Positions 1 through 49,828 of a stretch of 64,000 bases of DNA are shown here, piece after piece (the stretch's first letter is position 1; each line of letters begins with the position of its first letter). The position numbers and the translations under genes were made by a program. The notes below the pieces were generated by a model, which searched no databases, was not told where the DNA came from, and worked only from the letters and a program-made list of their open reading frames with translations. Source of the DNA: Escherichia phage ES19; sequence record MN508616.2; one strand, given 5' to 3'.

Positions 1-1041
1 TTACTATCAATAGCACCTAACTGATAAGCACGTTTAATAGCATCTCGGAATGGTTGATGCTTAAATAAAGGACCCCAGAATGTAGTGCAGTTAGTATCTT
101 TTGCACGCCAAGATTTTTCTTCGCGAATCATCTCGCCGGTTTCTTCGTCAAGAAATTCACGAGCATACCAACCATTCTTAGGTTTTACTACAAATCCTAA
201 TTCTAGAGCCATATCTAACAATCCAGAATAAGGATCGATACCACCGTCAAATTTAACATCAATAAAGAATTTACTTTTTTCTTTAACGGTACGAGATTTT
301 TCTATATTTAGAACAAATTGATACCCCTGAAGATCAGAACCATCTTTAATCTGGCGCTTACCGATAATGAATACAGTATCAGCCGAATACATTACGCCTG
401 TACCACCTGTCATCACGGTTTTACTAAACATTTCAATTGTTTCAATTGTATGGTTAACCGCAACACATGGAATGTTTTTAATACTAAAATAAGGAGTAAC
501 AATACGGAATAATGACTTCAGTGATTTAGCACGAGTCATATCTGCCACAGATTTTTCATTCAAGGCATCTTCCGTTTCTTTCTTAGAAGCCATATTACCA
601 ATTGAGTCGATGAATACAATAACTTTTTCACCGCGCTCAATAGCTTCAAGCTGATTCACCATATCAATTTTCAGCTGTTCAACTGACTGAATTGGTGTAT
701 GAATTACTCGTTCCGGGTCAACTCCCATGGATCGCAAATAAGCTGGAGTAATACCAAATTCGCTATCATAGAATAGACATACCGCGTCAGGATATTTGTT
801 CAAATACGCCGCAACCATAGTCAAAGACATATTTGATTTAAAGTGTTTAGAAGGACCTGCAAAAATGGTTAAACCAGACTGCATACCACCATCAATCGCA
901 CCAGAAATAGCGATATTAAGCATTGGGATTTTTGTACGGATTACATCCTTTTCATTAAAGAATTTAGATGTAGTCAGTTCAGCAGTCATTTTAGAAGTGG
1001 AAGCTTTAATCAAACGGGATTTTAAATCTGCAATAGACATT
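1..1041 (-). CDS. uvsX: UvsX RecA-like recombinase, C-terminal end cut by window edge
   Basis: Minus-strand translation from ATG at 1041 gives MSIADLKSRLIKAST...GPSKHFKSN (P-loop)...FIDVKFDGGIDPYSGLLDMALELGF; frame stays open to position 1. Confidence 0.9.
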
Positions 1042-1117
1042 CATTTTTTCCATAGGCATCATTATATTTTCCTCACTGGTTAAAGATAGAGTAATTATAA
1101 CACAATAAATTTAGGCA

Positions 1118-1966
1118 TTAATCAACTGCTATTGGATGAATAGCATTAAACTTATGAAATGCTTCTGATTTTTCTTTACGTGAAACGCACATGCGAAGAA
1201 CCTTTAATGGCTCGTCTTCTTCACCCAACGATTTTCGTTTTTCAATATTAGAAGTTTTCCAACGAGCTTGCTCTGGAAACTCTCTATTGATTTGCTCAAG
1301 CGCTCTATTATGTTTAGAATTACTACGAATTGAACTGCACCCGCCAGGAGCTTGTGCTTTTCCAGATACAACCAGATATTTGAACAAGGCCAAATGCGGA
1401 TAACCTTGATTAATTAAATTGAGAAATGCATACATATCTTCGCATAAATCAATTTTTCCATACCCAATTTGTTCTGTCGTAAGTTTTCCAAGGTCATACC
1501 ATGTATTCGTGAATCCATATGAATTTTCACGATAATTACCCCAAGATGAAGTAATTTTAAAAATTGGTAGACGAGCATGGCCATGATAATATCCGCAATC
1601 CATGGCATCCTCAACATATTGAATCAATTCATAGAACTGTTCACGAGTTAATTGATTAATTTTATCTACACATCGGCGATCATCTCTTTTTCGCATTGAA
1701 CTCATACGAATAGTAGTATCATCGTCAATCATCCAGATTCGTTGACCTGCATACATATCAGTAATTGCTTTACGAGTACCGGCAATTCCGTTTACATCAT
1801 CAGGAATAGTTATAATTTTAGCTCTAGACCCATAGGCATCATAATAAGCTTTTTCTTCGTGTTCACGCACTACAATATGGGGTTCATAATCAGTCGGAAA
1901 CATATCAAGGGCAGAAACTGCCCCTACGCGCTGATAGCTTGGAATTACGAATTGAATCATTTCCAC
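1118..1966 (-). CDS. DNA-modification glycosyltransferase at the beta-gt locus (not T4 beta-gt-like; possibly T2/T6-type beta-glucosyl-HMC-alpha-glucosyltransferase)
   Basis: 282-aa ORF between uvsX and gene 42 where T4 has the 351-aa beta-gt; sequence does not resemble T4 beta-gt as I recall it; function inferred from synteny. Confidence 0.5.
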   Translation of the reverse strand: MEMIQFVIPSYQRVGAVSALDMFPTDYEPHIVVREHEEKAYYDAYGSRAKIITIPDDVNGIAGTRKAITDMYAGQRIWMIDDDTTIRMSSMRKRDDRRCVDKINQLTREQFYELIQYVEDAMDCGYYHGHARLPIFKITSSWGNYRENSYGFTNTWYDLGKLTTEQIGYGKIDLCEDMYAFLNLINQGYPHLALFKYLVVSGKAQAPGGCSSIRSNSKHNRALEQINREFPEQARWKTSNIEKRKSLGEEDEPLKVLRMCVSRKEKSEAFHKFNAIHPIAVD

Positions 1967-7288: not shown

Positions 7289-7852
7289 TTACCATTCCAA
7301 TGCTAGTTTTTTGAGTTGTTTCTGTTCTTTTACGTTCTTAGTCACTTCTTTCAAAAAATCATCCGTGACTAAACCTTTTAGTTCTTTTAATACTAAAGGA
7401 AGTTTTCCATTTTTAGTAAGAATTGATTTATAGTTAATTGCATCATTTGTATTAACTTGATACCGCTTAGCAAGTAACTTAATAATCAATACTTCAGTAG
7501 AATCTTCGACCAGTTTTGCCCATTTACCATATCTTTTACCCCGAGGAACAGCAGCCATCAGATAATTAAAATGGGCTTCATCGCTTAAACCTGATCCAAT
7601 TAAATTCATCGCATATACAGCTGGCATGCATTCAGGAAATTGTGATAATGCATTCTCAACCATGTATTTTGAATAATCTTTTTGAGCAATAGAGCATTTA
7701 GTTTTATTATTAATAGCTCCAATTATTTCAAAAAACTCATTTTCAGCTTTTTCTTTAAAAGAATCAGCAGCGGATTGGACAGCTGTCCAATCTTTAGAAT
7801 ACCAAGCAACTTGATGCTCGTTTAATTGAATATCATCTTCAAATAAGCTCAT
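7289..7852 (-). CDS. 62: clamp-loader small subunit gp62
   Basis: Start placed at [25 protein letters not shown] (187 aa), overlapping the gp44 stop; tracked ORF extends 7 codons upstream. Confidence 0.85.
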
Positions 7853-7853
7853 A

Positions 7854-8813
7854 TCACTTCCACTGCATTTCACATGCTAATTGAATGAAAAGATATGCTA
7901 AATGTAATTCCGTATTAGCCGCAATTCCGTGATACTGGTTATTTTCACCAACAATTTCATACATACGAATAATACTTTGTGGAGTTACGCGTGTATAGAT
8001 TTCTTCGGCAAGTTTACCTACGAACCACGAATAATCAGCTGCATATTTTGGTGCTAAAGCTCTGAGCTGTTTAACATCTTTATTTTTGAGAGATTCAAGA
8101 ACATCATCAATAGCACCACGATCGTTAGTAACCAGTGATAAAATACCAGCATCCAAAACACCTTTAGACGAATAACTATCGAGCTCGCCAATAGTTTTAC
8201 GAAAATCAGGAAAATTCTTTTTAACCAAAGCTGCTACAACTTTCATATCAGCTATAGCAATTCCTTCATGCTTACAGATTTCAGTCAATCGACGAATCAT
8301 CTGCTTCATCATTTCAATTTTATCTTCATCGGTCGGTTGACCGAATGTAATAACTCGGCAGCGTGACTGAAGCGGTTTAATAATACCATCAATATTGTTA
8401 GCAGTAATAATAATACTACAGTTTGAACTATAAGCTTCCATAAATGAACGAAGATGTCGCTGAGACTCTGCTAGCCCTGAACGGTCAAATTCATCAATAA
8501 CGATTACTTTTTGACGACCATCAAATGAAGCTGCACTGGCAAAATTAGTCAAAGGACCGCGAACGAAATCAATTTTACAGTCTGATCCATTTACAAACAT
8601 CATATCAGCATTTACATCATGACACAATGCTTTTGCTACAGTTGTTTTACCTGTTCCTGGAGAAGGAGAATGAAGAATAATATGTGGAATCTTACCTTTA
8701 CTTGTAATAGATTTAAAGGTTTCTTTATCAAAGGCGGGAAGAATACATTCATCGATAGTAGATGGACGATATTTCTGTTCAAGAATGTGTTCTTTTTCAT
8801 TTACGGTAATCAT
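7854..8813 (-). CDS. 44: clamp-loader ATPase gp44 (AAA+)
   Basis: Start placed at [22 protein letters not shown] (319 aa) behind GAGGAAATT; Walker A GTGKTT, Walker [12 protein letters not shown] motif. Confidence 0.9.
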
Positions 8814-13556: not shown

Positions 13557-13574
13557 AAGGGCCGAAGCCCTTTA
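13557..13574 (-). other. intercistronic RNA hairpin with UUCG tetraloop
   Basis: Minus-strand AAAGGGC-UUCG-GCCCTTT overlapping the a-gt stop; identical to the hairpin at 8847. Confidence 0.5.
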
Positions 13575-14774
13575 TTTTGTAATAATGTCAAACTGTTCTT
13601 TAAAGCAGAAGCTTGAATCTTGATGCTGATACAAAAATTCATATGCTTTTTCTCGCTCACGGTCATAAAGAGCTCGGTCAGATGACAGTTCTTTAATACG
13701 TTCAAACGTTGATTCCATATCATTTTCATCAAACCAAATGATACCGCTATCATGCGAGGTCAAAGGAGTATTATCAACACGGAATTTTAAATTTTCGCCA
13801 GTAGATTTCCAAAATACCGGAATTGTTCCACATGCACCAAGCTCGAGATGAGTATATTCTAAAGAACGTTGTAGATATTTTTTGTCCAACTTACTCAGCT
13901 GATAACCAAAACCGGATTTACTCATGCGTTCAAGCATTTCGCTATTTACATAACGGTCAAGAATTTGCGTTGGCAAATTAGGAGCAATTTTAATTTGGTC
14001 TACTTGATGAAGACGATAATACTCGTATGGAATTCCCTTTTCTTTAATAGGAATGAACGCTGGAGAACGTTCCAGACCTTCCATAATAGTACTTAGTCCT
14101 GCAGGTTTAAGATGTTTTTCATGAAAATCAAACATCTGGTAAAAACCTTTCCATGTAGTAGTACGACCAATCCAACGGTTGATATTCATGTTAATTTCAG
14201 AAACATCTTTCCAGTAGGTTGATCGAACCTTCGCAATATCCATAGGAGGCTGAAAGTTATATACGGTCGGTGCTTCTTCAATATCATCAAACAGAGAAAC
14301 GGTTTCTGGATACCATTCTTTCATCAGAACTTTATTAAAATCACCATTATCAGAATGGCTAAAAATAACATCAGCTCGACGAACAGTTTCTTCTAATCCC
14401 AAATTTCGGCGCAAAGAAAGAGAAGAATGGTCATGTTGATAAACTACAACACGAACAGAAGGTTTAATGTTATCAATAATTTTTTTATAGTTATTAATAG
14501 TGTCTTCTTCAACCGAAGTAGCAGGAACTGAATTGATAATTAGAATATCACAATCATTTACCAGCTTAAGTGTTTTATCATATTCTTTTGCCAATAAAAC
14601 CGGAATTGAAAATGATTTATAATCATGCGCGCAATTACGAGTAAATGATTTATCTTTAGCATAAACCAAAGTTACTTCATGACCATTCTTAATAAACCAA
14701 TCACGTTGCTCAAGAGAAAATTTAGTTACACCACAACCTTCAAGACCTCGAGCCATAAAAATACATACTTTCAT
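13572..14774 (-). CDS. a-gt: alpha-glucosyltransferase (HMC-DNA alpha-glucosylation)
   Basis: 400-aa ORF MKVCIFMARGLEGCGVTKFSLEQRDWFIKNGHEVTLVYAKD...; length and sequence match T4 alpha-gt. Confidence 0.9.
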   Translation of the reverse strand: MKVCIFMARGLEGCGVTKFSLEQRDWFIKNGHEVTLVYAKDKSFTRNCAHDYKSFSIPVLLAKEYDKTLKLVNDCDILIINSVPATSVEEDTINNYKKIIDNIKPSVRVVVYQHDHSSLSLRRNLGLEETVRRADVIFSHSDNGDFNKVLMKEWYPETVSLFDDIEEAPTVYNFQPPMDIAKVRSTYWKDVSEINMNINRWIGRTTTWKGFYQMFDFHEKHLKPAGLSTIMEGLERSPAFIPIKEKGIPYEYYRLHQVDQIKIAPNLPTQILDRYVNSEMLERMSKSGFGYQLSKLDKKYLQRSLEYTHLELGACGTIPVFWKSTGENLKFRVDNTPLTSHDSGIIWFDENDMESTFERIKELSSDRALYDREREKAYEFLYQHQDSSFCFKEQFDIITK

Positions 14775-25876: not shown

Positions 25877-26898
25877 TAGTTTAGTGCATTTAGTGCGTTG
25901 TTCAGTTTAGAACGTTGCTTCGTAAGATTTTTGACTTTTTCTTGAGCTTTTTCTAGCATCTTTTCAGCTTCTAACACTTCATTAGTTGCTTTAACGAGTT
26001 CATCATCTACTGCCTTGATAGACTTCTCAATCGCATCCGCGTGCCATTTTTCAACAGGTTTAAGACTCGGATTTTCAACAGGAAGAAAATTCACTTTATT
26101 GAATTTCCATGTATCTTTATTACCTGAACTATACATCCAAAATTTAGGATCGTTTGATGAGTAATTGGATAAATTTAAGATATCTTGCACTTCCTGCTTT
26201 TTCTCTTGCGGGACTTCGTCCTTTCTCAAAAAATCGTATTTAAATGAAACGATCATATCAAGTTCATACGTTGTTGTATGTTCCCAATTTCGCTCAAAAT
26301 GAGGTAAAATCTTAGACTGAACCGCGGCAACTACATCCATATACTTAAATGCTTCTGTCAACTGTGATTTAAGGCATTCACAAATTGAAAGAGAATTTTT
26401 TGTATTAGGTTTAAAGCTAATTCGTGCAGTTCTGTTATTTTCTTTTAATGGTCTTACTTCCATCTGAAGAGTATAACCATCAAATTTCAGATTCTTTAAG
26501 TTAATATCAGAACCTTTTAATCGACTAGCAGTAGACAAAATTTGCTTTAATTGTTTACGGAATAGAGCAATAAATCTCCATTCAATACGATAATGATTTG
26601 GATTGAAAAATCCAGATGATAAATCGACCTTACTCTGACCAACACCTTGAACAAATAGAGGATTTTTATAATCAATAGTTTTACAGAAATCGGTGAGCTG
26701 TTCACGAGCAGTCATTTGAGTAATATACCCAGCTTCATTAAAATTACGCACCCATTCACTGCTGTTCAGATGTTTAAAGGCGTGAATGGAACAATTAACT
26801 TTACCAAGGTCTAAATTATTTTCACACAAAAATGTCATAGCATCACGAGTATAGCTGGCATTACGAACCATATCTTCAATTTGAGAACGAGTTTTCAT
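25876..26898 (-). CDS. hypothetical protein, coiled-coil paralog family member C
   Basis: 340-aa ORF; ALFRKQLKQILSTASRL motif homologous to member B; C-terminal coiled coil. Confidence 0.5.
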   Translation of the reverse strand: MKTRSQIEDMVRNASYTRDAMTFLCENNLDLGKVNCSIHAFKHLNSSEWVRNFNEAGYITQMTAREQLTDFCKTIDYKNPLFVQGVGQSKVDLSSGFFNPNHYRIEWRFIALFRKQLKQILSTASRLKGSDINLKNLKFDGYTLQMEVRPLKENNRTARISFKPNTKNSLSICECLKSQLTEAFKYMDVVAAVQSKILPHFERNWEHTTTYELDMIVSFKYDFLRKDEVPQEKKQEVQDILNLSNYSSNDPKFWMYSSGNKDTWKFNKVNFLPVENPSLKPVEKWHADAIEKSIKAVDDELVKATNEVLEAEKMLEKAQEKVKNLTKQRSKLNNALNALN

Positions 26899-40067: not shown

Positions 40068-40484
40068 TTAAATGTAAATATTTTTGCCGTAATACTTATA
40101 CCAGTGTGGCTTCATTAAAATTTTTTCATCGAGTCGTTGTTGACTCAACTTAATAGCTGATTTGCATGGATTATAATCATTTTTCCATTCTACTGGAATA
40201 TCGCTGATGTCAGGAACTTCAGTATCTTTTATACTGAACCCGCGTTTTAAGCATTCCGTTATAATGTCCGATTGACGCTTTCGCAAAAATTCTAACTTAT
40301 CGTAAAAGAAAGTAACATGACCAGAACCTAAAATAAATTTAGAAGATATTTTAAAATCTTTAACGCGCTTACCGTTTGCCACATGCTTACGAACTATACC
40401 AAAAACACGCGGCAATTCACGGTATTCTGCGATTAAATGTTGATCAGCAAGTTCAGATACTAAAGTCAAATTAATACGAGTCAT
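40068..40484 (-). CDS. denV: endonuclease V (pyrimidine-dimer DNA glycosylase)
   Basis: 138-aa [32 protein letters not shown]...; matches T4 DenV. Confidence 0.9.
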
Positions 40485-40543
40485 TTTATCCCTCCAAGTA
40501 ACTGTGAATATACTATCACAATTCTAGGAGAAAGTAAATAGCT

Positions 40544-41074
<531 letters not shown>

Positions 41075-43352: not shown

Positions 43353-43946
43353 TTATTTCAGAGAATTAATATATTCCTGAACATCGGCAGAGGTAGTTTC
43401 AACCCCAGAAATATTACCATTAAAGGTTTCAACTCGAGCAAGAGTATCTTCAATATCAACCTTAGTCAGTGCTGCAATTTCAACTACATCATCAGCAGTA
43501 CTAATTCCAAGGGCATTCGCTGCACGAGTTTCACGGATATATTCCAATTTAACCGCAAGTTCTTGACGAGCATCATCTAACTCAACTACTTTCTTGGCGA
43601 TTTCAATTCGCATTTCAGCATAACCGTCAGCCTTAGTAGTCAACTGCTCAGCTGTTCGACGATATAGTAAACCGAGTTTAGCATGCATTGTTACATCTTG
43701 GCCTTCGGAAAGAAGTTTACGAATTTCACGCTCTTTTGATTCGGCCTGTCGATTCTTTTCGATAACAAGTTCACGAATACGTTTTTCTTCGTTAATAGAT
43801 TTAACAGAAGCAGTTTTTAGATCTTTAATTTTATCAAGTAGTTTTGCTGCTGCAGCAGTATACTGTTCTTCGACAGATAGATTTTTAGCCATAGCAGAAC
43901 CAAGTTTAGTGCGAATAAACTCAACAATTTTCTTCAGTGTGTTCAT
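43353..43946 (-). CDS. hypothetical coiled-coil protein (PspA/IM30-like architecture possible)
   Basis: 197-aa almost entirely helical, heptad-rich ORF; the similarity to PspA is only architectural. Confidence 0.4.
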
Positions 43947-44047
43947 AGTATTTCCTTAGGTTAATTGAGATTTAAAATCCGTAGGAGTATAATACTCTAT
44001 CGTCAAATTATAGGCTCATAATATCTCAATCATGAGCCTGCGTAAAC

Positions 44048-44311
44048 TTATTTCATATTATTGAAATATTCTTCTGCGATTTCGTCGTTATCATGGTAAA
44101 CTTTAGAAGACAGTTTAACATAACCTTCTGCTGTGAACATATTAATCACAACTTTTACAGTATACCACTGACCGTCTTCATTACCCATTACTGCGTAAGT
44201 TTCAAACATCGGATGATCAGGACCGATAACTTTAATATCATTCACTGTACGACCGAAATCTTCTGAAACGCATTTCATAAAGAAGTTGAACAGTTCGCCG
44301 TAATTATCCAT
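44048..44311 (-). CDS. hypothetical protein
   Basis: Start at MDNYGELFNFFMK behind GGAGAATGAA and an early promoter. Confidence 0.45.
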   Translation of the reverse strand: MDNYGELFNFFMKCVSEDFGRTVNDIKVIGPDHPMFETYAVMGNEDGQWYTVKVVINMFTAEGYVKLSSKVYHDNDEIAEEYFNNMK

Positions 44312-44354
44312 TTCATTCTCCAAGTTGTTTTCTGTATCAGTAGTTGATAGTTGT

Positions 44355-44384
44355 ATAGTACCATGGAAGAACAGAGATGTAAAC
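44355..44384 (-). promoter_or_regulatory. T4-type early promoter (-35 GTTTAC, -10 TACTAT)
   Basis: Near-identical copy of the 3775..3804 promoter. Confidence 0.55.
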
Positions 44385-44540
44385 AGTTTTGTGAAAAAAT
44401 TTTTAGGGAATTCTAGGGCAGGGATGGGCAATTAAAGGATAGGATAATATATTATAAAGGGTATAAACTAAATGATGCCTAGAGAGGTCCAGAAAGGCCT
44501 AGATACCAAAAAGCCCTATCATTTAGATAGGGATTTAAAA

Positions 44541-45104
44541 TTATTTACCTAGTTTACTTATTATAGCTTCTGCAGCAGCTTTTAGCTTAGATGCAGTGTT
44601 AATACGATTTTTAATTTCAGTATACGCATCGCCAAGAACATCAAGGCTATCAGAATAAACACTTACACTATTGCGTTCGCTATTTGAAATAGAACCTTTA
44701 GTTTTGCGGTCAAAATCGGTGTACACGTCTTGAAGATCGCGGGCTGCCTTCTTTGCATCATCCAATGCATCAAGAGCTTTATTCAAAGCATTAACGTATT
44801 TTTTAGTGTCGAACATATTCTTAGAAATTTTAACAGGTGCGCGTTCAGGAGTAGCTAACACAGATTTAGGAACCTGAGCGCCAGATGCCAATTTCTTAGA
44901 AATTTTGAAAAATGCTTTATTGAATTTATTTTCTTGACTCATTGTAAAAGAACTATTATCGATGTTGTACATTTCAATAGCTTTAGCTTTCCACTTAAGA
45001 AAATCGCCGCGGTCTTTTGGGTCCAATTGGAAGAATACTTTAGTAAGATCTGCTTCAGATGGTAATTTTGCTGCTTCGGTTAAAAATTCGGCATAGGTTT
45101 TCAT
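44541..45104 (-). CDS. internal protein candidate (IPIII-like) with capsid-targeting sequence
   Basis: N terminus MKTYAEFLTEA matches the T-even capsid-targeting sequence with an LxE prohead-protease site; basic, Ala/Lys-rich body. Confidence 0.6.
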   Translation of the reverse strand: MKTYAEFLTEAAKLPSEADLTKVFFQLDPKDRGDFLKWKAKAIEMYNIDNSSFTMSQENKFNKAFFKISKKLASGAQVPKSVLATPERAPVKISKNMFDTKKYVNALNKALDALDDAKKAARDLQDVYTDFDRKTKGSISNSERNSVSVYSDSLDVLGDAYTEIKNRINTASKLKAAAEAIISKLGK

Positions 45105-45194
45105 TTAAAATCCTTGAAATAATTTATCGGTTGGTTATTAATTATTTATTACTTTGTTACTATCCGTAACAGCGTTATCCGAGTGATTCAAACT

Positions 45195-45222
45195 AAAAAG
45201 CCCCAACCTTTCGGTCGGGGCT
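45195..45222 (-). terminator. intrinsic terminator
   Basis: Minus-strand GCCCCGACC-GAAA-GGTTGGGGC followed by TTTTT, after the IP gene ending at 45230. Confidence 0.6.
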
Positions 45223-45229
45223 AAGAATG

Positions 45230-45703
45230 TCATTTGATTTGTTTAGCAGACCAAATGCGGTCTTTAATAATTTTTTGGATGTCTTCAACATACTCAAGAG
45301 AGTGAACATGTGGATTATCTTTGAAACTATAAGCACGGGCTAACTTTTGGCCTTCGGTTTTGATTACTAAAAGCTCTTTAAGGATAGCTTCATATTTAGC
45401 GATAATTCCTTTAACGATATTTTTTTCTTGTGCCGCTTTAGGATCTGCTTTAGGAGCAGGTTTACCCGAAGCCTTTGCAAAAGCAGCGCCAGTAGCAACT
45501 AAACTTTTCCAGGCCATACTAACTGCATTTCCCGTAAATCCTTCCGCTTTCATGTCGCGTGCAAACTGGAATCGTGATTCATCAGAAGCATCTTTATAGG
45601 AATATTTACCCGCGGCAATGGCAGCTTTTGCAACAGCTTGAATTTCGGTGCTAGATGCTTCATTTAACACCGCTTCATTTAAAAATTGAGTATATGATTT
45701 CAT
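45230..45703 (-). CDS. internal protein candidate with capsid-targeting sequence
   Basis: Start at MKSYTQFLNEA (157 aa); late promoter TATAAATA upstream; the first 59 codons of the tracked ORF run across the terminator and promoter. Confidence 0.55.
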   Translation of the reverse strand: MKSYTQFLNEAVLNEASSTEIQAVAKAAIAAGKYSYKDASDESRFQFARDMKAEGFTGNAVSMAWKSLVATGAAFAKASGKPAPKADPKAAQEKNIVKGIIAKYEAILKELLVIKTEGQKLARAYSFKDNPHVHSLEYVEDIQKIIKDRIWSAKQIK

Positions 45704-45742
45704 CTTATTTCCTGTTTTAATTTGTAGATTTAATATACTAAT

Positions 45743-45750
45743 ATTTATAC
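45743..45750 (-). promoter_or_regulatory. late promoter (TATAAATA)
   Basis: Minus-strand TTGGTATAAATATT about 40 nt upstream of the IP start at 45703. Confidence 0.5.
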
Positions 45751-45751
45751 C

Positions 45752-45779
45752 AAAAAGCCCCAACCTTTCGGTCGGGGCT
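45752..45779 (-). terminator. intrinsic terminator (exact repeat of 45195..45222)
   Basis: Identical hairpin plus U-run at the 3' end of the non-coding region. Confidence 0.6.
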
Positions 45780-45830
45780 AAGCCTTGCGGCAACCTTGTC
45801 GGGGTTCCACCTGCTAAGGCAAGTGTTTGT

Positions 45831-45922
45831 ACGAAACGCCGGGATTCGAACCCGGTTATTAAGTAGTTGACGCTACTCAATATTTTTAAAAGGCCATATC
45901 TCGACCATATCCGAACGTTCCG
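45831..45922 (-). ncRNA. tRNA-like element (acceptor stem plus canonical T-arm, aberrant body)
   Basis: Minus strand: 7-bp acceptor CGGAACG/CGTTTCG and T-arm CCGGG-TTCGAAT-CCCGG; no regular D or anticodon arm; lies in a 300-nt ORF-free interval. Confidence 0.3.
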
Positions 45923-46086
45923 TCAAAAACGCTACTCGGCTTACGGCAAAGATATTTCCTCGAATCGATAATTCGGTGCGCCGTTTCTGCTGTGATAGTA
46001 AAGAGCCAGAACACAGTAAAACTGTGGGAGGAAACTATACTCCAGGGAACATCAGTCCGACGACTTACCGGTAGCGACCCGGTTTC

Positions 46087-46437
46087 TTAATATTCTTTTA
46101 AAGAATCAATATATTCACGGCGTTTACGCCACAAATCAATTGCTTCATACGCGGATTCAGCATTTCGAATTAGCCGGCATTTATGTAAAGACTTATGATT
46201 TTGATATTGTGTAGATAACGGAATTGTATCTAAAAGGTCTTTACGATCAAAATATTCGTAACCATCTAAACCAAATGAACGATTTTTGAGAAATTGCCAA
46301 TGACCATATTCGTTTTCGACATAAACATAATCTGCATGCTGATAAAGCAAATTAATTACACGTTCAGAAATAACAGTATCATTATGATTAAAATAGAATG
46401 TTAAATCATGAACTACTAAATAAACATTACCTTTCAT
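46087..46437 (-). CDS. hypothetical protein
   Basis: 116-aa ORF immediately downstream of tRNA-Arg; start preceded by GTGAGGAAAAT. Confidence 0.5.
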   Translation of the reverse strand: MKGNVYLVVHDLTFYFNHNDTVISERVINLLYQHADYVYVENEYGHWQFLKNRSFGLDGYEYFDRKDLLDTIPLSTQYQNHKSLHKCRLIRNAESAYEAIDLWRKRREYIDSLKEY

Positions 46438-46455
46438 ATTTTCCTCACTTATAAT

Positions 46456-46531
46456 TGGTCGAGGCAGTAGGGATCGAACCTACGACCTAGGACTTAGAAG
46501 GTCCTTGCTCTTCCTTCTGAGCTATGCCCCG
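46456..46531 (-). tRNA. tRNA-Arg (anticodon TCT)
   Basis: Hand-folded cloverleaf: acceptor CGGGGCA/TGCCTCG, anticodon loop CTTCTAA, T-loop GGTTCGATC; CCA encoded. Confidence 0.8.
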
Positions 46532-46535
46532 TAAT

Positions 46536-46611
46536 TGGGGTGACCGATGGGAGTCGAACCCATGACTACGAGAATCACAATCTCGAGTTCTACCAACTGA
46601 ACTACGGCCAC
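46536..46611 (-). tRNA. tRNA-His (anticodon GTG)
   Basis: Acceptor GTGGCCG/CGGTCAC, anticodon stem CGAGA/TCTCG with loop TTGTGAT, T-loop GGGTTCGACTCCC, discriminator C, CCA encoded. Confidence 0.75.
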
Positions 46612-46725
46612 ATTAATACCTACTCCAACAATCAAGATGTCTTCACACGAAATTAAGAGAAGAGTGATCAGTTCAACCCCTATAATCGCGTCAAGTAGAT
46701 ATTAATGTGACAGTTGTCACAAATT

Positions 46726-46800
46726 TGGCGGACGTGATAGGATTCGAACCTATAACCAATCGCTTAACAGGCGATCGCTCTGCCATTGAGCTACACATCC
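46726..46800 (-). tRNA. tRNA-Asn (anticodon GTT)
   Basis: Acceptor GGATGTG/CACGTCC, anticodon stem ATCGC/GCGAT with loop CTGTTAA, T-loop AGGTTCGAATCCT; CCA encoded. Confidence 0.75.
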
Positions 46801-46805
46801 AAATT

Positions 46806-46891
46806 GGTGGGGAGTGGTGGAGTCGAACCACCCGAGTCGCAATGACAATGGATTTACAGTCCACACCGCTACCTCTACGGGATAACTCCCC
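46806..46891 (-). tRNA. tRNA-Tyr (anticodon GTA), long variable arm
   Basis: Acceptor GGGGAGT/ACTCCCC, anticodon loop CTGTAAA, long variable arm, T-loop GGTTCGACTCC; CCA encoded. Confidence 0.75.
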
Positions 46892-46900
46892 AAATTAATT

Positions 46901-46975
46901 TGGTGGCCCTGGGTGGAATTGAACCACCATCTGGCGATTATGAGTCGCTTGCTTGAACCTTCCAGCTACAGGGCC
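46901..46975 (-). tRNA. tRNA with CAT anticodon (Ile by analogy with T4 tRNA-Ile, otherwise Met)
   Basis: Acceptor GGCCCTG/CAGGGCC, anticodon stem AGCGA/TCGCC region with loop CTCATAA, T-loop GGTTCAATTCC; CCA encoded. Confidence 0.7.
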
Positions 46976-46976
46976 T

Positions 46977-47052
46977 TGGTGCTGATTGACGGAATCGAAC
47001 CGCCGACCTTCTCATTACAAGTGAGTTGCTCTACCTACTGAGCTAAATCAGC
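46977..47052 (-). tRNA. tRNA-Thr (anticodon TGT)
   Basis: Acceptor GCTGATT/AATCAGC, anticodon loop CTTGTAA, T-loop GGTTCGATTCC; CCA encoded. Confidence 0.8.
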
Positions 47053-47057
47053 AAAAC

Positions 47058-47147
47058 TGGCGGAGGCGATAGGATTTGAACCTATGAGTCGCCGGAGCGA
47101 CTGCCGGTTTTCAAGACCGGTGCATTAAACCACTCTGCCACGCCTCC
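47058..47147 (-). tRNA. tRNA-Ser (anticodon TGA), long variable arm
   Basis: Acceptor GGAGGCG/CGCCTCC, anticodon stem CCGGT/ACCGG with loop CTTGAAA, long variable arm, T-loop GGTTCAAATCC; CCA encoded. Confidence 0.8.
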
Positions 47148-47149
47148 AG

Positions 47150-47223
47150 TCTCCGTGGCAGGATTTGAACCTACGACATTCTGCTCCCAAAGCAGACGCT
47201 CTACCAAACTGAGCTACACGGAG
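47150..47223 (-). tRNA. tRNA-Pro (anticodon TGG)
   Basis: Acceptor CTCCGTG/CACGGAG, anticodon stem TCTGC/GCAGA with loop TTTGGGA, T-loop GGTTCAAATCC; CCA not encoded. Confidence 0.8.
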
Positions 47224-47233
47224 TAAATTAAAT

Positions 47234-47307
<74 letters not shown>

Positions 47308-47312
47308 AAATT

Positions 47313-47399
47313 TGGTGCGAGAAGTGGGACTCGAACCCACAAGGAAATCATTCCGCAGCATTTTAAGTGCTGTGCCTTTACCAATTTGGCCATTCTCGC
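47313..47399 (-). tRNA. tRNA-Leu (anticodon TAA), long variable arm
   Basis: Acceptor GCGAGAA/TTCTCGC, anticodon stem CAGCA/TGCTG with loop CTTAAAA, long variable arm, T-loop GGTTCGAGTCC; CCA encoded. Confidence 0.8.
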
Positions 47400-47400
47400 G

Positions 47401-47473
47401 CTGGGAATAAAGGACTCGAACCTTTGCATCCTGGAATCAAAATCCAGTGCCTTACCAACTTGGCTAATTCCCA
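47401..47473 (-). tRNA. tRNA-Gln (anticodon TTG)
   Basis: Acceptor TGGGAAT/ATTCCCA, anticodon stem CTGGA/TCCAG with loop TTTTGAT, T-loop GGTTCGAGTCC; abuts tRNA-Leu with a 1-nt spacer; CCA not encoded. Confidence 0.8.
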
Positions 47474-47570
47474 ATTATTAACAAAGGCTCTTAAGCAAGA
47501 ACCCTTGATGATAGAGGGTATTAATCAGTGCGATATGAGTTAATAATAACAAATAATTCTTAAAGCATAT

Positions 47571-47858
47571 TTACCATTTATAATAATACATATTTACGAT
47601 GCATTCAAGACCCAAAGGATTCTTGAAAATATCATATTCAAGAGGACCTTTTTCTGTTTCAATAAAGAAATCAAAATTTACTGTATTAAATTTACGTTCT
47701 TCCTTCACTAATTTAACTTGAGAAGATGAACGGTCAATGTAAACCTTTTCAACTTCAAAACATGTTAAAATGCCATAATCATCAATCAAAGCTTTAGCCG
47801 CGTCTTGATCATATTTATATCCATTTTCAATGGATGATACTTTCGCATAAAGAATCAT
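47571..47858 (-). CDS. hypothetical protein
   Basis: 95-aa ORF upstream of the tRNA cluster. Confidence 0.4.
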   Translation of the reverse strand: MILYAKVSSIENGYKYDQDAAKALIDDYGILTCFEVEKVYIDRSSSQVKLVKEERKFNTVNFDFFIETEKGPLEYDIFKNPLGLECIVNMYYYKW

Positions 47859-47860
47859 TA

Positions 47861-48259
47861 TCAGCCTTCATCAACAATAGTGTGAGTATTAGCATTTACG
47901 ATTTGCCACCAATCAAAGCGATTAGAATCCATCGGTTTGTTTTCATTTTCTTTGATAATGTCACGGAGTTCATCTTCAGAGAATGCTTTAGCAATTAAAT
48001 CGGTATACCCACCACGGGGATAATAATTATCACCTGCAAACAAAAGGAAATTTACCTTCCCGGAAGCAACATATGCTTCCTTAGGATACTTGTTTCCTGC
48101 GTGGTCAACCACTTCAATATAACGGTAAGGAATATCGGTTCTTTCAGCCCATTGCCATGCCGCCGCAGGGGAATCGAAAGCATCTACACCTAAACGATTA
48201 TCTTCATCTTTAGACGGATTATTTTCGTAATCCGCATATACATAATATTCAACGTTCAT
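47861..48259 (-). CDS. hypothetical protein
   Basis: 132-aa ORF. Confidence 0.45.
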   Translation of the reverse strand: MNVEYYVYADYENNPSKDEDNRLGVDAFDSPAAAWQWAERTDIPYRYIEVVDHAGNKYPKEAYVASGKVNFLLFAGDNYYPRGGYTDLIAKAFSEDELRDIIKENENKPMDSNRFDWWQIVNANTHTIVDEG

Positions 48260-48444
48260 TATTCACCTTTAGAAATTTTATCCATAACAATAGCAATTAA
48301 ACCAATTAAAAATGCTACTACAAGTGAAAACACATTTTCTGCTGTAGTCAATAATCCACATATAAATCCAACAAACATTGAAAAACTAAAAGCGGAAGCA
48401 GAAATTGCAATAGCAACATTTCGAATTAATTCACAACGTTTCAT
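48259..48444 (-). CDS. hypothetical small membrane protein
   Basis: 61-aa ORF MKRCELIRNVAIAISASAFSFSMFVGFICGLL...; own early promoter. Confidence 0.45.
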   Translation of the reverse strand: MKRCELIRNVAIAISASAFSFSMFVGFICGLLTTAENVFSLVVAFLIGLIAIVMDKISKGE

Positions 48445-48472
48445 TTTATTCTCCTCAGTAGTAGATAGGGTA

Positions 48473-48503
48473 ATAGTATCACTACCCTATCTAAAAGTAA
48501 ACT
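48473..48503 (-). promoter_or_regulatory. T4-type early promoter with palindrome-flanked -10
   Basis: Minus strand GTTTAC...GATAGGGTAGTGATACTATTACCCTATC; -10 TACTAT sits inside an inverted repeat. Confidence 0.55.
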
Positions 48504-48736
48504 TATTTTTTACGAAAAATTGATTTATTTTCTGCTGCCCATTTTTCAATAACTGCAGCAGGACCAGTAACAACAATTTTATCACCGTAATCTTCTGCGG
48601 CGAGTTGACCGAAATTATCTAATGCATCACGAAGAACTCCATGAGGCATTTCACCCATTTTATCTTTCTTGCCAGTGTAAATAAACTCAACTTTTACATC
48701 AGCAGTTTCAGCAATAAATTCTTGGTAAGTTTTCAT
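48503..48736 (-). CDS. internal protein candidate (IPI-like) with capsid-targeting sequence
   Basis: Start at MKTYQEFIAETADV (77 aa), a textbook T-even capsid-targeting N terminus; own early promoter. Confidence 0.6.
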   Translation of the reverse strand: MKTYQEFIAETADVKVEFIYTGKKDKMGEMPHGVLRDALDNFGQLAAEDYGDKIVVTGPAAVIEKWAAENKSIFRKK

Positions 48737-48770
48737 TTTGATTTCCATTTGGTTTTGTTTTGATAGGGTA

Positions 48771-48800
48771 ATAGTATCACAACTAAAACCCTATGTAAAC
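48771..48800 (-). promoter_or_regulatory. T4-type early promoter with palindrome-flanked -10
   Basis: Minus strand GTTTACATAGGGTTTTAGTTGTGATACTATTACCCTATC. Confidence 0.55.
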
Positions 48801-48812
48801 AACTTTGTGAAA

Positions 48813-49070
48813 TTATTTTAAATCTTCTAATCGTTTCTTCATCTTAGAACCATTTTTAGCAATTTCTCCTGCATCGGAGCATAATGCTAAAAGTGCTTTA
48901 ACTTTAGTTTGGTCTCCTTTAAAAGATGAAGGATCGACCGCAGCAGCAAGTTCTTTAATACGAGAGAAAAGACGCTCAGCTTCAGCTAAAGCCATTCCAA
49001 GCTTTACTTCCATACCGTGGGAAGATTCAGTGATAGTAGTTTTTGTAGCAAACTCTTTGAAAGTTTTCAT
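48813..49070 (-). CDS. hypothetical small protein, possible internal protein
   Basis: 85-aa ORF starting MKTFKEFATKT (capsid-targeting-like but lacks the Glu at position 10); own early promoter. Confidence 0.4.
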   Translation of the reverse strand: MKTFKEFATKTTITESSHGMEVKLGMALAEAERLFSRIKELAAAVDPSSFKGDQTKVKALLALCSDAGEIAKNGSKMKKRLEDLK

Positions 49071-49101
49071 TTTTATTTTCCTAATTAATTTTGATGAGGT
49101 A

Positions 49102-49131
49102 ATAGTATCACTACCTCATCAGTATGTAAAC
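49102..49131 (-). promoter_or_regulatory. T4-type early promoter with palindrome-flanked -10
   Basis: Minus strand GTTTACATACTGATGAGGTAGTGATACTATTACCTCATC; palindrome arms differ from 48473 but stay complementary. Confidence 0.55.
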
Positions 49132-49143
49132 AACTTTGTGAAA

Positions 49144-49828
<685 letters not shown>

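Follow-up and report, generated by a model that had tools for sequence, protein, structure and literature searches.

In the 64,000-nucleotide stretch of Escherichia phage ES19 analysed here (record MN508616.2; hereafter the window), four open reading frames (ORFs) begin with the capsid-targeting sequence (CTS) of T-even internal proteins (IPs). Two of them, between genes 57B and trna.4, are internal proteins already known and named (IpV and IpVI). The interval between rnaC and e.8 holds the other two, 45230-45703 and 44541-45104; these we take as new members, so far unannotated, of the internal-protein kind, at a widespread locus for which we found no earlier description. We consider it fairly likely that the CTS leads to packaging of all four proteins, which would then be processed by the gp21 protease, be co-injected, and act as counter-defence factors; this phage encodes them over two loci. 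All genes treated here are on the minus strand. The first-pass annotation of this DNA had reported the four CTS starts and their position on both sides of the tRNA genes, and both observations were borne out.

A six-frame translation of the whole window (ORFs of at least 40 codons) was searched with the expression MK[TS][YFW]..F and returned exactly these four ORFs. The same search on 200 dinucleotide-preserving shuffles gave a mean of 0.025 ORFs and a maximum of 1, none of the 200 reaching four, and the whole genome of phage ES21 holds only five matches, the fifth being a homolog of gene 61.1 outside the window. A chance resemblance of these N-termini to the CTS is thus practically inconceivable. 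Mutational work has assigned CTS targeting to residues 4 and 7 and processing to residues 8 and 10 (PMC9026906). In all four ORFs residue 4 is aromatic and residue 7 is Phe. Three of them combine Y/F4, F7, L/I8 and E10, and 48813-49070 has the longer propeptide of the IPI type, with ITE at residues 13-15 (17-19 in T4 IPI). Sites for the prohead protease gp21, [IL]-x-E followed by a small residue, occur as LTE/A, LNE/A and IAE/T at residues 8-10 and as ITE/S at 13-15 (the slash marks the predicted cut), and 45230-45703 has a second LNE/A site at residues 13-15. Three of the four predicted mature products are basic, with isoelectric points (pI) and masses of 9.54 and 19.6 kDa (44541-45104), 9.50 and 16.0 kDa (45230-45703) and 9.21 and 7.5 kDa (IpV). 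At pI 9.5 and 16-20 kDa, the predicted products of the two rnaC-e.8 genes resemble T4 IPII* and IPIII*. Cleavage would leave the N-terminal peptides AAKLPSEADLTK (44541-45104), AVLNE... or ASSTE... (45230-45703), TADVK... (IpVI) and SSHGMEVK (IpV).

Both genes of the rnaC-e.8 interval matched phrog_2280 end to end: 45230-45703 with E 2.3e-60 (residues 1-157 on profile positions 1-172) and 44541-45104 with E 2e-53 (residues 1-181 on positions 1-178). The bodies of the four proteins had initially been described as unrelated to each other. Pairwise comparison agreed with this: BLASTP found no body similarity among the four, and for 44541-45104 and 45230-45703 the observed score was reached by 404 of 2000 shuffles. 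However, the description failed for these two once family profiles were compared. A profile of near-identical 44541 homologs only gave no relationship to the 45230 family (21%). An exhaustive HMMER search found a 204-amino-acid (aa) relative at 31% identity, and tblastn with this relative reached 350 phage records, from the genera Tequatro-, Mosig-, Dhaka-, Karam- and Jiaodavirus, a spread that the k-mer-based homolog search had understated. With distant members included, the 44541 profile was aligned by hhalign to the 45230 family over its full length (96% probability, E 3e-9), and over 100 columns when the CTS columns were left out (82%, E 1e-5). From these profile alignments, together with a layout that the structure models of both proteins have in common (see below), we take 44541-45104 and 45230-45703 to be probable ancient, distant paralogs.

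The CTS is the best-conserved part of the PHROG 2280 family. Homologs of 44541-45104 in the other four genera and in a metagenome have only 22-31% identity and kept the CTS, with M1, F7 and E10 among only eleven invariant columns. Their starts read MLNFKEFIAE-SDSDMITE/AG (Karamvirus), MKTYNEFLNE-SVLTE/AG (Dhakavirus IME08 orf129), MKFKDFLTE-EELFE/AA (Jiaodavirus), MYTFNEFLAE-TEVITE/AG (Mosigvirus) and MITFNEFLNE-SEMINE/AG (a metagenome sequence), each with a second [ILF]-x-E/A site. In the 45230 family, too, the CTS persists, as MKFKEFLAE and MLEYSEFLKE in members from Klebsiella and Yersinia phages. The tRNA genes are followed directly downstream by the homolog in IME08, ESh15 and ATCCa (Dhaka-, Mosig- and Jiaodavirus), and the IME08 record shows e.8 beside it; the Karamvirus record has no tRNAs annotated in the stretch shown around the homolog. 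Since homologs occupy a like position in other genera, the rnaC-e.8 locus appears to be old and to have been lost by T4, rather than recently inserted.

In alignment to T4, the block 44533-45746 is inserted in the e.8-rnaC spacer and is flanked by a repeat of about 30 nucleotides (nt), the 3' half of the rnaC terminator. In transcription order the locus consists of the rnaC terminator, TATAAATA, 45230-45703, a second copy of the terminator, AATAAATA, 44541-45104 and a third hairpin (coordinates in Table 1). The exact late promoter TATAAATA lies 39 nt before the ATG of 45230-45703, and the cassette ends in a terminator copy identical to that of rnaC. AATAAATA is a possible variant late promoter, because its spacing to the ATG of 44541-45104 is the same 39 nt. 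The third hairpin ends in GGGCTTTTTGGTAT and rejoins the T4-type sequence CTAGGCC. Each gene is thus a self-contained monocistronic cassette of promoter, CTS gene and terminator. Four states of occupancy were found: both genes (in the window and in about 127 records), 44541 alone (HY03, FL23), 45230 alone (wV7, RB27, fD1) and neither (T4, RB3, PST). In all four states, every junction falls within the terminator repeat, and the pattern of presence and absence, of the sort that IP genes usually show, is one of cassette gain and loss by recombination between the repeated hairpins.

45230-45703 occurs in 511 phage records, and the names among the 40 listed are 'hypothetical protein' or 'Phage protein' only; 44541-45104 occurs in 164, with 'hypothetical protein' as the only name among the 40 listed. 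They are unlabelled even where authors had named Ip4, Ip5, IpI or Ip9 (RB27, RB3, IME08). The CTS reading of PHROG 2280 was absent from the records and libraries inspected, and earlier recognition in the older IP literature is possible, for instance among the '>30 IP variants' of Comeau 2007. The literature confines IP genes to two loci (Arbiol et al., PMC2839356; Silas et al., 2025, PMC12373910, who write of 'the two Ip loci'), and the sequences of 44541-45104 and 45230-45703 are not present in the supplements of Silas et al. (2025). Our literature search found no virion proteome for the carrier phages fPS-2/65/90 and fHe-Yen9-01. In Yersinia phage fD1, gene product g140 has 98% identity to 45230-45703 and the same genome position. 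The authors of the fD1 study listed it in their Table S3 as particle-associated by LC-MS/MS of ultracentrifuged virions (two or more peptides, mean spectral count of 2 or higher), with the remark 'no similar protein in T4'; Ip4 and the ipI-locus proteins were also detected and called head proteins. The fD1 virion data are public as PXD026812. Cleaved g140 is predicted to start with the peptide AVLNEASSTEIQAVAK or ASSTEIQAVAK.

The identity of the other pair was clear from named homologs, and here the call of internal proteins in the first-pass annotation was correct. 48813-49070 has 100% identity to IpV of Yersinia phage PST (labelled Ip5 in RB3) and matches phrog_3499, 'internal head protein' (E 1e-49). 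48503-48736 has 95% identity to PST IpVI, matches phrog_8111, 'internal virion protein' (E 1e-52), and carries the same propeptide as T4 IPII and IPIII. Its start was placed at the ATG at 48736, which has a GGAAA Shine-Dalgarno-like element, and not at the upstream ATG at 48748, which has none. IpV, IpVI and trna.4 are each preceded by a copy of an element of about 70 nt, a T4-type early promoter (TTTACA-17-TACTAT, extended TG) with its -10 box in the loop of a stable hairpin. IP-locus elements of this sort are attributed to Repoila 1994 and regarded as PeSL (early-promoter/stem-loop) analogues by Arbiol et al. (PMC2839356). The e.8 early promoter (44355-44403, minus strand, with its upstream AT-rich part) has 85% identity to the IpV and IpVI promoters (repeat family D7), so the 'IP-locus repeat' owes part of its sequence simply to the T4 early-promoter consensus.

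In the window phage the classical slot of ipII and ipIII stands empty. Genes denV (40068-40484) and e (40544-41038) are 59 nt apart, and between them is a single early-promoter/stem-loop element, whose homolog in T4 stands before ipIII. An ORF scan found no CTS ORF anywhere between vs.8 and e in the window. The repertoire had been described as rearranged relative to T4, in which the IP genes were placed between denV and e. This placing is right for ipII and ipIII and wrong for ipI, which lies beyond the tRNAs beside 57B. Since T4 keeps ipI there, the IpV/IpVI pair is canonically placed, and the rearrangement comes down to the empty denV-e slot and the two CTS genes in rnaC-e.8.

Table 1. Coordinates of the CTS genes, stable RNAs and regulatory elements in the window (a slash marks a predicted cleavage site)
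Feature	Position	Strand	Detail
Early-promoter/stem-loop element, denV-e intergenic	40485-40543	-	alignment to T4; hairpin -18.3 kcal/mol
Terminator hairpin at the end of the 44541 cassette	44514-44532	-	3' part GGGCTTTTTGGTAT re-forms the T4-type junction to CTAGGCCTTTC
CTS ORF, 187 aa; candidate internal protein, PHROG 2280, probable distant paralog of 45230-45703	44541-45104	-	MKTYAEFLTE/AAKL
Second rnaC terminator hairpin copy (45199-45222; repeat family D5), then AATAAATA (45143-45150)	45143-45222	-	
CTS ORF, 157 aa; candidate internal protein, PHROG 2280 (RB32ORF133c / fD1 g140 type)	45230-45703	-	MKSYTQFLNE/AVLNE/ASS
rnaC terminator hairpin (45756-45779), then exact late promoter TATAAATA (45742-45749)	45742-45779	-	
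rnaC stable RNA	45830-45968	-	99% identity to T4 rnaC; borders the rnaC-e.8 locus on the tRNA side
rnaD stable RNA	45975-46087	-	79% identity to T4 rnaD
Cluster of 11 tRNA genes	46456-47473	-	ARAGORN and Rfam
Early-promoter/stem-loop copy 3 (repeat family D2), upstream of trna.4	48460-48530	-	closes the ipI-locus array; hairpin -18.5 kcal/mol
IpVI, 77-aa internal protein with CTS	48503-48736	-	propeptide MKTYQEFIAE/T; predicted mature 67 aa, pI 6.5
Early-promoter/stem-loop copy 2 (D2), upstream of IpVI	48758-48828	-	promoter 48799..48771
IpV (Ip5), 85-aa internal protein with CTS	48813-49070	-	IPI-type long propeptide MKTFKEFATKTTITE/SSHG; predicted mature 70 aa, pI 9.2
Early-promoter/stem-loop copy 1 (D2), upstream of IpV	49089-49159	-	promoter 49130..49102; hairpin -17.4 kcal/mol, z -4.6

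We tallied the CTS genes per locus in seven phages (Table 2). Like rnaC-e.8, the other two loci vary in content among them. With totals of three in T4 and four in PST, a set of four internal proteins is ordinary, so the 'enlarged' repertoire of the first-pass annotation (one above T4, equal to PST) is better called redistributed. PST IpIV was considered as a counterpart of 45230-45703, which has the same length (157 aa), and was rejected as unrelated.

Table 2. CTS genes at the three loci in the phages tallied
Phage	vs.8/denV-e	rnaC-e.8	trna.4-57B
T4	IPII + IPIII	none	IPI
PST	IpIV + IpIII	none	IpVI + IpV
RB3	Ip4	none	IpI + Ip5
RB27	Ip4	45230-type	IpI
wV7	Ip4	45230	Ip5
HY03	Ip4	44541	not covered
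Window	none	45230 + 44541	IpVI + IpV

Our preferred reading of the four genes is as follows. The N-terminal M-K-T/S-Y/F-x-E/Q-F motif would bind the gp22 scaffolding core during prohead assembly, and gp21 would then cut after [IL]-x-E. The mature proteins, which are small and in three of four cases basic (pI 9.2-9.5), would remain in the head with the DNA and be injected together with it. Once in the cell, each would most likely neutralise a first-response defence. If T4 Ip1-3 are a guide, the target would most probably be a particular variant of the type IV enzyme GmrSD that attacks glucosyl-hydroxymethylcytosine DNA. The cassettes themselves may be gained and lost through homologous recombination between the repeated flanking hairpins. 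In T4, Ip1, Ip2 and Ip3 each inhibit one different GmrSD enzyme without cross-protection (PMC12373910), and IPIII is needed to infect ECOR17 (PMC9391042). By this analogy an anti-restriction role for the four window proteins is a reasonable supposition, and a stronger one than the first-pass annotation could know. Furthermore, the window phage encodes a gp42 hydroxymethylase, an alpha-glucosyltransferase and a second glycosyltransferase of the TAGT family. With these hydroxymethylation and glucosylation genes present, its DNA should be a target of type IV restriction. The modification genes are at 1118-1960, 1957-2697 and 13572-14774 (all minus strand); the TAGT-family enzyme, of 280 aa, adjoins gene 42, and the other glycosyltransferase is Pfam AGT. 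The beta-glucosyltransferase of T4 has about 351 aa, and the 280-aa TAGT enzyme suggests a T2/T6-like rather than a T4 glucosylation pattern.

A number of observations weigh against this reading. We infer the packaging, cleavage, injection and target of all four proteins from their genes. Of the 277 fD1 gene products, the virion list names 113, denV, lysozyme and NudE among them; because the list is so unspecific, detection of g140 is consistent with packaging but weak, and it bears no word on N-terminal processing. Predicted mature IpVI is not basic (pI 6.5). 45230-45703 and 44541-45104 lie outside both described IP loci (57B-trna.4 and vs.8/denV-e), and their flanks are terminators and late promoters, without early-promoter/stem-loop elements; however, locus position and early-promoter flanks are descriptive and not mechanistic features of internal proteins. 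The conservation of the PHROG 2280 family across genera is unlike the hypervariable anti-GmrSD IPs, and the pair may have another role. AlphaFold2 (AF2) models of the two had modest (45230-45703, 72.6) and low (44541-45104, 58.5) pLDDT, a per-residue confidence measure, and the second was judged too poor for a fold search. For none of the four proteins was an informative match obtained from Pfam, NCBIfam, a sequence search of the PDB or Foldseek (PDB and BFVD), and these searches showed no resemblance in sequence or fold to IPI* or to any solved structure. Finally, the early gene 61.1 of T4 also starts with MKTYKEFIKE, so the motif alone is not proof of packaging.

A serious alternative, which we nevertheless rate as unlikely, is that the PHROG 2280 pair is packaged but forms structural or assembly components of the head core, IPIII-like, in place of the missing IPII and IPIII. 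Such a role would cover prohead assembly kinetics or the neutralising or organising of packaged DNA. It agrees with the conservation of the family and with its place just downstream of the tRNAs in members of Dhaka-, Mosig- and Jiaodavirus, which is unlike the hypervariable arms-race IPs, and with the total of three or four CTS genes in 6/6 sampled phages with all three loci covered. Predicted mature 44541 is near T4 IPIII* in mass (19.6 vs 20.4 kDa) and charge (pI 9.54 vs 9.65, K+R 32 vs 33, D+E 23 vs 23). Both AF2 models place a predicted helical domain of about 55 residues, a basic Pro/Ala/Lys-rich linker and a long helical hairpin behind a disordered CTS with a short helix. In T4, IPIII mutants assemble heads at about half the rate, give a burst of about 40% of normal and accumulate polyheads (PMC9026906). 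However, T4, RB3 and PST lack the family, and its genes are lost singly among close relatives, indicating that they are dispensable. Moreover, IPIII itself is now known as a GmrSD inhibitor, so head-core and counter-defence roles are not mutually exclusive.

A lesser alternative, and one we find less likely still, holds that the rnaC-e.8 genes encode ordinary cytoplasmic late proteins, their CTS-like 5' ends being kept as a shared module for recombination or translation initiation (the ribosome-binding site (RBS) and the first ~11 codons). The four start regions do have 64-77% nucleotide identity over about 42 nt including the RBS (repeat families D4 and D6), and the first 16 residues are equal in P0014 of the 45230 family and IME08 orf129 of the 44541 family, which suggests exchange of 5' ends. 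Annotators who named Ip4, Ip5 and Ip9 in the inspected records did not name these genes as IPs, and T4 61.1 has the motif; to our knowledge it has no known virion role, and we know of no report of its packaging. However, the motif is held at the protein level with different codons and with substitutions at permissive positions only. That positions 4, 7, 8 and 10 do not vary among homologs only 22-31% identical points to selection on the peptide. A cleavage site in which Glu is followed by a small residue is never missing, and virion preparations contained the fD1 ortholog.

Returning to packaged and injected proteins, we tentatively put forward a broader proposal, about which we have more doubts than hopes. 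The tRNA/rnaC-e.8 interval could be a third IP locus that predates the split of the Tevenvirinae genera and encodes a conserved, two-domain, packaged and injected family (PHROG 2280), overlooked because T4 lost it. The family might then be an injected class distinct from the hypervariable GmrSD inhibitors, either a general counter-defence or a head-core factor. If the proteins are packaged, the IP system would extend from two to three loci with a family common to five genera, and two unannotated CTS proteins would become ready candidates for new anti-restriction specificities. Injected internal proteins act ahead of any phage gene expression and were recently shown to decide which wild E. coli a T-even phage infects, and phages with this arrangement, among them HP3 and ES21, are candidates for therapeutic use.

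The region 44000-49700 has 100% identity to Escherichia phage ES21 and 99.9% to HP3 and YUEEL01 (Tequatrovirus), and the window phage is a Tequatrovirus of this type. Its genes follow each other in the order of transcription as 1, 57A, 57B, two CTS ORFs, trna.4/3/2, eleven tRNAs, a 116-aa ORF, rnaD, rnaC, two CTS ORFs, e.8, e.6-e.2, nudE, e and denV. The T4 record, in the opposite direction, has denV-ipII-ipIII-e, e.8, a 284-bp spacer, rnaC, rnaD, the tRNAs with segB, trna.2-4, ipI and 57B. The positions of rnaC and rnaD were taken from alignment to T4, Rfam being without models for either. The homing endonuclease gene segB of T4 is absent from the tRNA region of the window. The window has 11 tRNA genes against 8 in T4, with His, Asn, Tyr and Met extra and Ile missing. 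A gap of 114 nt between tRNA-His and tRNA-Asn (46612-46725) gave no tRNA call by ARAGORN or Rfam; it contains a 24-nt inverted repeat (46601-46624 / 46694-46717) and could be a decayed tRNA or a small RNA. The 116-aa ORF (46087-46437, minus strand; phrog_3355, function unknown) lies between rnaD and tRNA-Arg. Beyond this ORF, HY03 is rearranged: an ORF annotated as packaged ADP-ribosyltransferase (7436-8080, plus strand, in the HY03 sequence examined) and then baseplate genes stand where the tRNA cluster and the ipI locus would be, which may be a genome rearrangement or an assembly artefact of the record. On the other side of the rnaC-e.8 locus, T4 e.7 is absent, leaving about 100 nt (43947-44047) between e.6 (43353-43946) and e.8 (44048-44311). 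Relatives have other small ORFs at this position (PST ORF130, wV7 gp139), and the gap is another small hyperplastic spot adjoining the locus.

Two further sets of CTS-like starts were seen outside the window. The 61.1 homolog of ES21 (54 aa, 26364-26528, minus strand) lies about 3.5 kb before the window start and reads MKTYKEFIKE/D, with an IKE site. Conservation of gene 61.1, a neighbour of the primase gene, extends to 1396 T4-like records; its matches in distant phages begin only at residue 4-10. In IME08, two unannotated ORFs of 69 and 74 aa (720-929 and 1008-1232, plus strand, in the sequence examined) lie between 57B and the annotated Ip9 and start with MKTYNEFLTEA and MKTYQEFITEA, so the ipI locus of this Dhakavirus has three CTS genes, one of them annotated.

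Compared with the internal proteins of T4, the window proteins have a CTS that is identical in 48503-48736 and shares 7-8 of 10 residues in the others, the [IL]-x-E motif, small and mostly basic products, mutually dissimilar bodies, and dispensable and polymorphic genes. They differ from them in that no T4 IP has a body homologous to theirs, the slot of ipII and ipIII is vacant, and two genes stand where T4 has none. The alignment with IPI, IPII and IPIII called for earlier thus found similarity in the CTS and propeptide but none in the bodies by BLASTP. Furthermore, packaging and anti-GmrSD activity, demonstrated for T4 Ip1-3, are predictions for the window proteins. The rnaC-e.8 genes find their own counterparts in PHROG 2280 (RB32ORF133c, fD1 g140, IME08 orf129), a family without a functional label. 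With the PeSL and IP-locus cassettes (Repoila 1994 as cited; PMC2839356; Comeau 2014, PMC4122927), the window shares repeated hairpins that bracket genes and recombination as the explanation of single-ORF gain and loss, and its ipI locus has three early-promoter/stem-loop copies of that kind; however, the rnaC-e.8 repeat is a G+C-rich intrinsic terminator with a late promoter after it, where those cassettes have an early promoter and an AT-rich stem-loop. The closest likeness is that of the IpV/IpVI pair to PST IpV/IpVI (RB3 Ip5), which beyond the identities given above has the same 57B-trna.4 order and the same promoter/stem-loop repeats and shows no material difference.

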